From the NCBI RefSeq assembly GCF_053078305.1, contig NZ_CP166879.1: a stretch of DNA of 64,000 nt. One strand, written 5' to 3'. Below are positions 13,652 through 13,981 of this stretch, piece by piece. Made by a program: the position numbers and the translations under genes. The notes below the pieces were generated by a model that worked only from the letters and a program-made list of their open reading frames with translations, was not told where the DNA came from and made no database searches. Each line of letters opens with the position of its first letter. Position 1 is the first letter of the stretch.

Positions 13652-13981
13652 TCACCGCCCATACTCATCTTCCATTCTCCGCTCTTCATCCTCCAGTTGC
13701 CGACGCTCCTGATCAAGCTGGCGCTGGCGATCGTCCAGCTGCCTGCGGCGATCTTCAAACTGGCGGCGGCGGTCGTCATATTGTCTGCGCCGATCGTCGC
13801 TCACTTCACGCTGCCAGCCGTCGTCGCGCGAATCGTCATAGTCTCGCCCACGGTCAGGGTTATAAGCGTCATTAATCGCCTGCTGAATATTGCCAATGGT
13901 GTCGTCGATAATATCGGCCTGGGCCGGTACAGTGGTCAGCGTGAGCAGGGTAAAAAGAAAGAGCGTGGAGTGGCGTTTCAT
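13652..13981 (-). CDS. yjdP: Small secreted protein YjdP with charged Arg/Asp/Gln repeats
   Basis: 109 aa; signal peptide MKRHSTLFLFTLLTLTTVPAQA; repeated DDRRRQ / EDRRRQ motifs. Confidence 0.7.
   Translation of the reverse strand: MKRHSTLFLFTLLTLTTVPAQADIIDDTIGNIQQAINDAYNPDRGRDYDDSRDDGWQREVSDDRRRQYDDRRRQFEDRRRQLDDRQRQLDQERRQLEDEERRMEDEYGR

Follow-up and report, generated by a model that had tools for sequence, protein, structure and literature searches.

YjdP, a conserved DDRRRQL-repeat protein of the Enterobacteriaceae that is probably induced by envelope stress and borders an exchangeable sugar cassette

In the window analysed here, the whole 64,000-nucleotide stretch of contig NZ_CP166879.1 (assembly GCF_053078305.1), a short gene encoding a small protein made largely of charged repeats lies immediately behind the gene of a sensor kinase. 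The locus raises the question of what such a protein does, and whether it belongs with the kinase or with the rest of its surroundings.

Identity and genomic setting of yjdP

The open reading frame recorded in the initial annotation is present and its 109-aa translation contains the quoted repeat stretch exactly (minus strand, ATG at 13981 and TGA at 13654-13652; Table 1). The name YjdP given there is also correct: the protein scores 149.3 bits (cut-off 90) against the curated equivalog NCBIfam NF041443, 'DDRRRQL repeat protein YjdP', with residues 1-103 aligned to profile positions 1-101 of 101, and RefSeq gives the homologous E. coli gene the same label. The Pfam family PF28054, named 'YjdP', is precomputed on all homologues; a Pfam scan run without this model found no family at E = 0.01, the best match being DUF7900 (E = 0.037), below its cut-off. 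Its ortholog in E. coli K-12 is YjdP (b4487), from an already catalogued gene, and 102 of 109 residues (94%) are identical between the two. D49E is the sole substitution in the mature protein, and the signal peptides differ at residues 4-9 and 16. yjdP is a core gene of the Enterobacteriaceae: about 20 genera carry it, and among complete E. coli genomes it is found in 5404 of 5426. Its description as poorly understood agrees with the literature searched, which mentions yjdP without making it its subject; a search with 'b4487' gave no relevant paper, and yjdP is absent from the supplements of the iModulon, early-antibiotic-response, DapB/Dxr and Prc papers.

Two long antisense frames are open across the gene (87 aa at 13612-13875 and 152 aa at 13697-14155), as would be expected if yjdP were a spurious ORF with the real gene opposite. 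However, over 63 species the codon-position entropy in the yjdP frame is 0.63/0.43/1.35 bits (positions 1/2/3), the third position having 3-5 times the entropy of the other two. This pattern identifies the yjdP frame, and not the open antisense frames, as the coding one, and on it both the spurious ORF and a real antisense gene were rejected.

Table 1. Features of the yjdP locus, in positions of the window
Feature	Position	Strand	Basis
yjdP CDS, 109 codons + TGA	13652..13981	minus	ORF list and translation, NCBIfam NF041443, K-12 identity, codon entropy
Putative signal peptide, residues 1-22 (MKRHSTLFLFTLLTLTTVPAQA)	13916..13981	minus	sequence features, A22/D23 invariance, length constancy
Predicted amphipathic N-terminal helix, residues 23-42 (DIIDDTIGNIQQAINDAYNP)	13856..13915	minus	conservation, hydrophobic moment, AF2
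Variable acidic linker, residues 43-61 (DRGRDYDDSRDDGWQREVS)	13799..13855	minus	AF2 coil, weak constraint
Six and a half heptads, residues 62-107	13661..13798	minus	21-bp period, register, charge statistics, AF2, purifying selection
Conserved upstream box TTGAGAATCCTCCTCTAC	14036..14053	minus	65 upstream regions, ~20 genera
Candidate RcsB box, inner 14-mer TGAGAATCCTCCTC	14052..14039	minus	conservation and consensus match
-10-like hexamer TACCTT (family TAnnnT)	14010..14015	minus	column conservation, 23 nt downstream of the 14-mer
Shine-Dalgarno GAGG, 8 nt before ATG	13990..13993	minus	sequence; GAG conserved in the alignment

The kinase reported beside yjdP is indeed directly upstream on the same strand: an 812-aa ORF ends at 14050, 68 bp before the yjdP ATG, and encodes HAMP, HisKA, HATPase_c and receiver domains. 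The adjacency is real, but it is no clue to function, yjdP being a gene that flanks the OI167 island and has conserved promoter-like elements of its own. In the work on LmvK/LmvR it is likewise treated as the flanking gene of OI167, a marker beside the two (PMC10128022). Of 66 species loci, about 30 have an lmvK-like gene directly before yjdP and in the same orientation, in genera that include Citrobacter, Raoultella, Kosakonia and Atlantibacter; yjdP occurs without the kinase in K-12 and about half of the genera. K-12 has rpiB upstream and the allose locus in place of the island, and across genera the upstream cassette (lmvK-type kinase or alsR-rpiB) alternates. The breakpoint lies inside the signal-peptide codons of yjdP, whose first ~12 codons co-vary with the cassette, the window carrying an 'island-type' haplotype unlike that of K-12; the mature protein does not differ between the two cassettes. 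That yjdP might be cargo of OI167 or of lmvK-lmvR was rejected on its presence in island-free K-12 and in nearly all the E. coli genomes counted above.

Another reading of the same neighbourhood is that YjdP is a periplasmic accessory of the LmvK-type hybrid histidine kinase, co-transcribed with it and modulating what it senses, as CpxP is an accessory for CpxA. The strand and the short spacer, the recurrence of the pair in about 30 loci and a spacer holding no convincing terminator or strong sigma-70 promoter all speak for it. Against it stand the conserved box and -10, which are independent of the upstream gene, the constancy of the mature protein and the use of yjdP just as a flanking marker in the LmvK/LmvR paper (PMC10128022). 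The distribution, with rpiB before yjdP in K-12 and cassettes alternating across genera, largely rejects this idea, which we consider very unlikely.

On the other side lies phnP, which converges on yjdP and ends at 13615, leaving 36 bp to the yjdP stop; this arrangement recurs in four distant members and in the majority of the 66 species loci. yjdP sits where the phn (C-P lyase) operon meets a sugar-utilisation cassette that can be swapped, here the lmvK-type kinase island. K-12 shares with the window the four-part layout of the protein, the convergent phnP, the 68-bp spacer and the conserved box; it differs in the rpiB upstream, in the 5' haplotype and in a repeat element of ~110 bp between yjdP and phnP, which the window does not have. 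An RNA fold of the yjdP 3' end revealed no terminator (z = -0.16).

Predicted architecture of the protein

The signal peptide claimed for YjdP fits the sequence, which has the marks of a Sec-type signal: a basic MKR n-region, a hydrophobic core and an A-Q-A|D cleavage motif. No Cys or lipobox was seen on inspection of the N-terminus. Across 94 homologues neither A22 nor D23 varies, and the signal peptide has 22 aa in 56 of 62 species; signal peptidase I is predicted to cleave after A22. The 109-aa precursor would then pass through Sec and yield a soluble periplasmic protein of 87 aa, predicted to be Cys-free and acidic (net -8). The mature protein is acidic in each of the 63 species compared, with net charges of -5 to -13 and a median of -8, and the family composition is 24% D, 21% R, 7% E and ~0.5% K. 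Three parts would follow each other in the mature protein, namely an invariant amphipathic helix, a variable acidic disordered linker and a helix of heptads.

The first part, residues 23-42, is the best-conserved segment of YjdP (codon entropy 0.30/0.19/1.16). Eleven residues, D23, I24, I25, D26, D27, G30, N31, I32, Q33, A35 and A39, are invariant in the 94 homologues, and the family motif ADIIDDxIGNIQQAINDAY is present after the signal peptide, from A22 through Y40. Its hydrophobic residues (24, 25, 29, 32, 35, 36, 39 and 40) follow a 3-4 spacing, the hydrophobic moment is 0.52, and the segment is helical in the AF2 model, with a confidence that fell to ~41 when the signal peptide was left out. 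The likeliest use of this invariant helix is as a docking or oligomerisation surface. The linker is the least constrained segment (1.01/0.88/1.47), AF2 giving coil at residues 41-54 with pLDDT ~56. Its length ranges between species from 13 to 30 aa and its net charge stays at 0 to -6, and despite this drift in sequence and length its acidity is kept (19-42% Asp/Glu).

The heptads read DDRRRQY DDRRRQF EDRRRQL DDRQRQL DQERRQL EDEERRM EDEY, with the consensus (D/E)(D/E)RRRQ(L/F/Y/M), and TRF reports a 21-bp period at 13726-13798. All hydrophobic residues of the tract (Y68, F75, L82, L89, L96 and M103) share one heptad position, and charge recurs every 7.2-7.3 residues. Counting i/i+3 and i/i+4 pairs, 35 are of opposite and 4 of the same charge (z = 4.9), an ion-pair pattern matched by none of 20,000 composition-preserving shuffles; the repeat pattern is far beyond chance. 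Judged from the codon entropy within the heptads (0.47/0.26/1.37 bits), they are under strong purifying selection, nearly as strong as in the best-conserved segment. The AF2 model has a single helix at residues 55-108 (pLDDT 96-98), so that the region is predicted to form one stiff helix of ~54 residues (~8 nm), nearly charge-balanced (net -2, with 10 D and 8 E). The initial annotation had called these repeats low-complexity. They are indeed charged repeats, but a loose low-complexity tract they are not, being register-perfect heptads with purifying selection and a predicted helical fold.

A comparison of repeat number between strains had been proposed, and the number proves to be nearly fixed at six. 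Of 175 sequences, 130 have the six-position hydrophobic stripe, as do 56 of 62 species; six is the mode of the family, and alleles with 5, 7 or 8 heptads are rare. The existence of such alleles, and of tandem 21-bp units, might indicate that the tract is neutral low-complexity sequence or a freely varying contingency locus, a reading that goes together with the spurious ORF discussed above. Nevertheless, the low entropy at the first two codon positions and a heptad core (RRRQLDDRQRQLDQERRQL) that is nearly invariant across genera are against it. Moreover the units slip poorly because they are only ~75% identical at the DNA level, all indels in yjdP are in frame, the 5-heptad allele occurs in just 16 of 5405 E. 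coli records, and yjdP mRNA is detected and inducible. To judge from the selection pattern, this reading is effectively refuted and we give it almost no credence. Whole heptads would sometimes be gained or lost by unequal recombination of the 21-bp units, with selection keeping six.

Two known kinds of helix can be compared with the tract. ER/K-type single-alpha-helix (SAH) domains occur in myosins VI and X and in caldesmon. YjdP resembles them in its charge blocks of ~7 residues, in a dense i/i+3 and i/i+4 network over more than 30 residues and in the prediction of one long isolated helix. It differs in its Asp/Arg instead of Glu/Lys chemistry and in its stripe of six Leu/Phe/Tyr/Met, SAH domains being defined by having no such seam; in addition it is bacterial, predicted to be periplasmic and only ~8 nm long, and shares no homology with the known examples. 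SAH domains typically use Glu, which favours helix formation more than Asp does. The assignment as a monomeric SAH is not secure because the helix is Asp-rich and carries the hydrophobic stripe.

The stripe itself suggests the second comparison, in which the heptads form a leucine-zipper coiled coil and YjdP is a homo-oligomer, a structural bundle like Lpp and not a monomeric rod. With Leu at d, Asp/Glu at e and Arg at g, salt bridges would form between helices, parallel or antiparallel. As in GCN4, tropomyosin and Lpp, Leu (here also Phe, Tyr or Met) recurs at exactly every seventh residue, over six heptads, with opposite e/g-type charges; the helix, moreover, is close in length to the periplasmic coiled coil of Lpp, which has 56 residues. 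The stripe drifts by -20 degrees per heptad, the behaviour of left-handed coiled coils, and the canonical 3-4 hydrophobic pattern of the N-terminal helix could nucleate pairing. The only matches obtained when the PDB was searched by sequence with the family profile were coiled coils as well (tropomyosin at E = 0.031, designed antiparallel coiled coils and GCN4), but at E 0.03-0.9 all are non-significant. Zippers have hydrophobic residues at both a and d, whereas YjdP has one hydrophobic position per heptad and Arg, Gln or Glu at the second core position. Unlike Lpp it has no lipid anchor, and AF2 gives no confident packing of two copies: the tethered dimer has a pTM of 0.44 and a mean pLDDT of 59.5, and a Foldseek search of it against the PDB returned no two-helix bundle (best E = 5.6, TM 0.19). 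Foldseek with the monomer model gave zero PDB matches, as expected for a lone helix. A true coiled coil appears unlikely to us, and the heptad helix, as modelled, may rather owe its straightness to Asp/Glu-Arg salt bridges within the helix, like an SAH rod, with a stripe that could zip weakly onto a partner.

The upstream box and expression of yjdP

The 18 columns of the box ahead of yjdP are 87-100% conserved, against 30-60% in the flanks, in the aligned upstream regions; its core is kept in Cronobacter and Buttiauxella and is unique in the window. The inner 14-mer begins with TGA, the stop codon that ends the kinase gene before it. The RcsB box consensus is TN(G/A)GAN4TC(T/C)NA (PMC7913699), and the yjdP box fits 7 of its 8 specified positions in all 65 family promoters, as many as the osmB and bdm boxes. 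The boxes compared were those of yjdP (TGAGAttccTCCgC), rprA (TGAGAcgaaTCTgA), osmB (TAAGAtgatTCCtG) and bdm (TAAGAttagTCCtG), which have TGAGA-N4-TCC in common and belong to genes induced together by a block in lipoprotein sorting. At the last consensus position all 65 yjdP boxes have C, whereas the consensus has A and osmB and bdm have G. The window has 15 sites fitting at 7 of 8 positions, which does not exceed the number in shuffles; the match alone is not significant and was rejected as stand-alone evidence for RcsB. It is the deep conservation, and not the consensus match, that supports the candidate.

In the -10-like hexamer the T, A and final T columns stand at 0.95, 0.92 and 0.92, and the middle bases vary. 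The spacing from box to hexamer equals that of the K-12 rprA promoter, measured from the annotated 5' end of the sRNA. With TAnnnT taken as the -10, transcription is predicted to start near 14003, 22 nt ahead of the ATG and equivalent to ~4313846 in K-12 NC_000913.3. This start would place the yjdP box at -49..-36, identical to rprA and just before the -35 region, where RcsA-independent activated promoters have theirs. Both box and TAnnnT persist in at least 65 loci, irrespective of which gene lies upstream. A strict sigma-70 promoter scan of the spacer found none, as is expected if the promoter depends on an activator, and a terminator scan returned only weak terminator-like matches, inside the gene or the spacer. 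The paper on the gadA RcsB box concerns a repressive site and is uninformative on activating geometry.

In K-12 derivatives the yjdP read counts are 5-10 times those of the upstream rpiB and change oppositely. Inhibition of LolCDE raises yjdP 9.5- and 10.6-fold (from 10.6 to 100-112 units), with osmB, bdm, wca, rcsA, ivy and mliC rising alongside; the same treatment switches on the Cpx, sigma-E and RpoS regulons too (PMC5105897). Under overexpression of CsiR, yjdP is repressed 3.5-fold and has a genic ChIP peak (PMC5217608), and from this dataset inputs besides Rcs exist for yjdP. The gene is probably switched on during cell-envelope stress. We infer, as a new proposal, that the 18-bp box resembles an RcsB box with rprA-like geometry, which would fit the ~10-fold induction. 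yjdP would then be read from its own weak activator-dependent promoter, the box being most likely bound by phospho-RcsB, and expression would rise when the Rcs envelope-stress phosphorelay fires.

Proposed role and meaning

The overall model, an Rcs-driven core gene whose product is exported by Sec and consists of amphipathic helix, linker and six-heptad helix acting as a rod or polyampholyte, is one that we believe slightly more than we doubt. Speculatively, stress would induce YjdP as a rod or polyampholyte in the periplasm, where it may bind either a conserved partner in the envelope or envelope components that carry charge; it may be neither an enzyme nor a part of the neighbouring kinase pathway.

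The same protein and regulation could also serve through acidity, as a high-capacity, low-affinity periplasmic buffer of divalent cations or as a decoy for cationic antimicrobial peptides and lysozyme, and YjdP would then complement the Rcs-induced lysozyme inhibitors Ivy and MliC. The acidity seen in every species, its maintenance in a drifting linker and the co-induction with ivy and mliC would agree with this. But the strongest conservation falls on a specific N-terminal helix and on exact heptads and not on bulk charge, and the heptad helix is nearly charge-balanced. We regard this alternative as quite improbable.

Among periplasmic proteins, YjdP is like Spy, CpxP and ZraP in being small, apparently Sec-exported, all-helical in the model and induced by envelope stress. 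Spy, CpxP and ZraP are curved hairpin dimers, unlike a rod of charged heptads, and the Pfam scan gave no profile match of YjdP to their LTXXQ family. In the LolCDE dataset spy rises 31-fold, cpxP 12.6-fold and yjdP 9.5-fold (PMC5105897). With TolA, whose domain II is a long charged periplasmic helix, YjdP shares a highly charged, repeat-rich helical segment with a predicted periplasmic location; it differs in having neither membrane anchor nor C-terminal globular domain. One YjdP homologue is named 'membrane protein involved in colicin uptake' by an automatic source, and this naming is an artefact of composition, not homology. A search for periplasmic SAH precedents found a paper on TolA/TonB evolution, which is silent on such helices.

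The length of Lpp sets the width of the periplasm and gates RcsF signalling. A more daring version of the preferred model, to which we give a small chance only, is that YjdP is a length-calibrated Asp/Arg SAH rod deployed by Rcs, docked by its N-terminal helix to an envelope partner and measuring or propping periplasmic distance. If so, the near-fixed six heptads (~8 nm, about 1 nm each) would matter.

As a find yjdP is ordinary, a named, curated and widely conserved y-gene, and its value is as a case for functional follow-up: it is nearly universal in E. coli and about 10-fold induced by envelope damage. It offers testable handles in the RcsB-like box with rprA-like geometry, in the putatively salt-bridged helix with its leucine stripe and in the heptad count of six. 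The locus also corrects a mis-reading, yjdP being a fixed anchor beside two exchanged sugar cassettes and not cargo of the EHEC-associated OI167.

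The yjdP gene and its product

The ORF reported in the initial annotation was found at the coordinates given there, though on the minus strand, and its translation, MKRHSTLFLFTLLTLTTVPAQA (signal peptide) followed by DIIDDTIGNIQQAINDAYNPDRGRDYDDSRDDGWQREVSDDRRRQYDDRRRQFEDRRRQLDDRQRQLDQERRQLEDEERRMEDEYGR (mature part), contains the charged stretch quoted there. The homology search also bore out its identity, as the product matches the NCBIfam equivalog NF041443 ('DDRRRQL repeat protein YjdP') at 149.3 bits (curated cut-off 90), and a Pfam family, PF28054 ('YjdP'), is precomputed on all homologues. 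It is 94% identical to YjdP of E. coli K-12 (b4487), with seven differences, of which D49E alone affects the mature protein and the other six fall in the signal peptide. YjdP is an already named and curated family; the literature search on yjdP returned passing mentions only, and no paper with the gene as its subject was found.

Features of the window bearing on yjdP and on RcsB-box matches
Feature	Position	Strand	Description
yjdP CDS	ATG at 13981, TGA 13654-13652	minus	109 codons, translated ORF
21-bp period	13726-13798		3.5 copies, 75% matches (Tandem Repeats Finder, DNA)
Predicted yjdP transcription start	~14003		
Box, window copy TTGAGAATCCTCCTCTAC	14053-14036	minus	alignment of upstream regions
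Hybrid histidine kinase ORF	14050-16488	minus	HAMP, HisKA, HATPase_c, receiver domains
531-aa ORF	53137-54732	minus	
Perfect RcsB-box consensus match TCGGATTTATCCAA	54563-54576		
Perfect RcsB-box consensus match TTAGATAAATCTTA	54789-54802		

The signal peptide that had been noted is borne out by a basic n-region, a hydrophobic core and an A-x-A motif directly before D, with A22 and D23 invariant; its length is 22 residues in 56 of 62 species. YjdP is therefore probably exported and its signal peptide cleaved, and since no Cys was found in any member of the family it is not a lipoprotein. A second length polymorphism of yjdP exists in E. coli ZH063 (NZ_CP014522.1; locus L077:178-227), where the h-region contains the 9-bp unit TTCACGCTG in tandem (5.6 copies, 97% matches), yielding MKRFPLFLLFTLFTLFTLFTLFTLFTVPAQA and a 118-aa precursor; this repeat is absent from the window. 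At least 80% of the ZH063 5' segment is covered in 448 of 5426 complete E. coli genomes, its 9-bp unit count varying by -1, 0 or +1 (spans of 101, 110 and 119 nt), and several ST131-type human isolates are among the listed matches.

Residues 23-42 form the best-conserved block, with hydrophobic residues at 24, 25, 29, 32, 35, 36, 39 and 40 in a 3-4 pattern (hydrophobic moment 0.52). They are followed by an acidic linker of 13-30 aa, variable in sequence between species, always of net charge 0 to -6 and modelled by AlphaFold2 as coil (pLDDT ~56). Residues 55-108 are predicted to be a single continuous helix (pLDDT 96-98) of about 8.1 nm, each heptad adding ~1.05 nm. All species examined have an acidic mature protein (net -5 to -13, median -8), strikingly rich in Asp/Arg instead of Glu/Lys (24% D, 21% R, 7% E, ~0.5% K). 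That such a protein is a bulk acidic buffer for cations or antimicrobial peptides seems improbable.

The heptad repeat

Residues 62-107 read DDRRRQY / DDRRRQF / EDRRRQL / DDRQRQL / DQERRQL / EDEERRM / EDEY, one heptad position taking every hydrophobic residue of the segment, and the charges recur most strongly with a period of 7.2-7.3 residues. Opposite-charge pairs at i/i+3 and i/i+4 number 35 vs 4 same-charge pairs (z = 4.9), a value that 20,000 shuffles never attained. In the yjdP frame, codon positions 1/2/3 have entropies of 0.63/0.43/1.35 bits over 63 species; the values for the heptads (0.47/0.26/1.37) are near those of the invariant N-terminal helix (0.30/0.19/1.16) and those for the linker are relaxed (1.01/0.88/1.47). 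The heptad register, the ion-pair excess and the low position-1/2 entropy thus establish the repeat as a structure under selection. The charged repeat of the initial annotation is real and, by its codon-position entropy, more than drifting low-complexity sequence; overall the observation was confirmed and its interpretation supported. Two long ORFs open antisense to yjdP and might favour a neutral or spurious tract, but with entropy at positions 1 and 2 so far below that at position 3 this explanation is hardly credible.

The comparison of repeat number between strains that had been proposed showed six heptads to be predominant. Among 175 distinct family sequences the stripe (the hydrophobic residue of each heptad) has six positions in 130, five in 38, seven in one (Citrobacter, 116 aa) and eight in one (E. 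albertii, 123 aa, with a 14-residue duplication), and it has six in 56 of 62 species representatives. A 5-heptad, 102-aa allele occurs at ≥ 99% identity in 16 of 5405 records from complete E. coli genomes, nearly all the remaining records spanning 330 nt. With rare 5-, 7- and 8-heptad alleles beside a near-fixed six, unequal recombination between 21-bp units thus adds or removes whole heptads and selection keeps six.

The charge pattern of the heptads is like that of single-alpha-helix domains. The single Leu/Phe/Tyr/Met stripe, with its drift of -20 degrees per heptad, is as expected of a leucine zipper and would fit an obligate coiled-coil oligomer; however, YjdP differs from a zipper in missing the second hydrophobic core position, and such an oligomer is rather unlikely. 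PDB matches of the family profile were marginal only (tropomyosin, E = 0.031; designed coiled coils and GCN4, E 0.4-0.9). A tethered dimer (mature-(GGGGS)8-mature; alignment A3, 19 species), an indirect and weak test, was modelled by AlphaFold2 with long helices at pLDDT ~90, N-terminal helices at ~41 and pTM 0.44, and a Foldseek search with this model, likewise indirect and weak, retrieved nothing resembling a bundle (best E = 5.6, TM 0.19). Within the reach of so weak a test, the modelling appears to lend self-association no support. We favour, with moderate confidence, a salt-bridged rod that meets a partner through the stripe and the N-terminal helix.

Genomic neighbourhood

As had been stated, yjdP lies directly downstream of the kinase gene on the same strand; the spacer from the upstream stop to its ATG is 68 bp, as it is in K-12. 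Read mechanically, the kinase ORF has 812 aa from GTG, and the homologous gene of E. coli F9792 is 2262 nt in RefSeq (753 aa), which would put the start near window 16311. The gene order in K-12 is alsR-rpiB-yjdP-phnP.

Almost every complete E. coli genome carries yjdP (5404 of 5426), and a species-level scan gave 66 loci, in Escherichia, Citrobacter, Raoultella, Klebsiella grimontii, Kosakonia, Cedecea, Pluralibacter, Pseudocitrobacter, Phytobacter, Atlantibacter, Trabulsiella, Kluyvera, among others. When 1.84 billion representatives were searched with a profile, only 55 matched, the range now reaching Cronobacter, Buttiauxella and Entomohabitans. The convergent downstream neighbour is phnP almost everywhere, and the upstream gene in the 66 loci is an LmvK-like kinase in ~30, alsR-rpiB in ~17 and another gene in the remainder. 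yjdP is not an island gene, being described in the literature as flanking the OI167 island (PMC10128022), and a role as accessory of the neighbouring kinase is very improbable. Because the upstream genes vary across genera while phnP-yjdP stays, the kinase and allose cassettes are an old trans-generic alternation beside a fixed yjdP. The 5' haplotype of yjdP co-varies with the upstream cassette, and the homology break between the window and K-12 falls inside the signal-peptide codons. A TGA inside the conserved upstream box is the stop of the kinase gene (window 14050-14053) and of rpiB (K-12 locus L001, ~2797-2800); with this common stop and the equal spacer, both cassettes end at the identical box nucleotide, which looks like a recombination joint.

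The yjdP-phnP gap of K-12 (L001:3199-3344) holds ~110 bp of extra G-rich repeat (…CCCCTCGCCCCTCTGGGGAGAGGGTTAGGGTGAGGGG…) compared with window 13616-13651, listed as a hairpin-G-quadruplex element (PMC5100583); its last ~25 bp alone are retained in the window and in F9792. Downstream of yjdP the window shows no predicted intrinsic terminator (z = -0.16). In the most diverged members (L069, Cronobacter dublinensis, and L070-L072) yjdP and the convergent phnP have 4 bp in common (2501-2842, plus, vs 2839-3615, minus). In Cronobacter a PhnH-domain gene and then yjdM adjoin yjdP, so the phn end was rearranged with yjdP still attached. Window 11000-17000 is only ~96.5% identical over 6 kb to F9792, the nearest E. 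coli with the island, and its phn genes are ~95% identical to those of K-12. No complete E. coli genome exceeds 97.9% to the window yjdP over full length, and the top species-level protein match is 'Escherichia sp. E1V33' (97%). The window thus probably derives from an Escherichia lineage that has diverged.

A candidate RcsB box and a proposed role of YjdP

In 65 aligned upstream regions an 18-bp box, TTGAGATTCCTCCGCTAC, begins 72-75 nt before the ATG, with no mismatch in 39 loci, one in 13 and two in 5, and with columns conserved at 87-100% vs 30-60% on either side. Downstream of the box stands a TAnnnT element (T 0.95, A 0.92, T 0.92), and the core of the box keeps an unchanged distance in Cronobacter, Buttiauxella and two further distant members. 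The inner 14-mer matches 7/8 specified positions of the RcsB consensus TN(G/A)GAN4TC(T/C)NA (PMC7913699), a match worthless alone because 15 sites of this stringency occur in the window, not more than in shuffles. The osmB and bdm boxes (TAAGATGATTCCTG, TAAGATTAGTCCTG) are also 7/8 and resemble that of yjdP. The rprA box of K-12, TGAGACGAATCTGA, occupies -49..-36 relative to the annotated 5' end of the sRNA and is 23 nt from the -10 TACTAT, the same gap as from box to TAnnnT in the yjdP family.

LolCDE inhibition in K-12 raised yjdP 9.5- and 10.6-fold, from 10.6 to 100-112 units, in a table that also lists osmB, bdm, wca genes, rcsA, ivy, mliC, spy and cpxP (PMC5105897); the inhibitor also switches on Cpx, sigma-E and RpoS genes. 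In a TOP10 dataset yjdP has 478-672 reads vs 96-61 for rpiB, with opposite directions of change (PMC6286996 supplement), which supports transcription independent of the upstream gene. As a caveat, yjdP is listed as repressed on CsiR overexpression, with a genic ChIP peak (PMC5217608). No report on yjdP in rcsB mutants was found in the literature searched. The deep conservation of the box, its likeness to proven K-12 sites and the expression strengthen the RcsB reading, and direct control of yjdP by RcsB through this candidate box, newly inferred here from sequence, is reasonably probable.

Two perfect consensus matches, 226 bp apart, lie elsewhere in the window, one at the 5' end of the 531-aa ORF and the other shortly upstream of this ORF, which we take, by eye from its translation, to be pdeC/yjcC-like; the adjoining genes are presumably yjcB and ssb.

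The predicted 5' UTR of yjdP carries a hairpin, AGCCAG-N15-CTGGCT, in many non-Escherichia genera (alignment A4 of loci L003-L068, columns 16-21 with 37-42), the Shine-Dalgarno GAGA standing directly 5' of its 3' arm. Its cells are paired at 77% vs 72% in shuffles (0/500 reach the observed value; slid controls 15-49%), with a covariation score of 0.292 vs 0.213 and compensatory changes in 4/6 pairs. It is absent at window 13982-14003, having decayed in Escherichia, in Citrobacter freundii-group species and in the window.

Envelope damage would switch on the Rcs phosphorelay, and RcsB at -42.5 would activate yjdP. The precursor would leave through Sec and be cut after A22, giving an acidic periplasmic protein in which a flexible acidic tether is predicted to join a docking helix to a ~8-nm salt-bridged six-heptad rod. 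Under stress YjdP might, speculatively, bind a conserved partner in the envelope or charged components of it. This is the mechanism we adopt; the more novel reading of YjdP as a length-calibrated periplasmic single-helix rod controlled by Rcs is distinctly doubtful.
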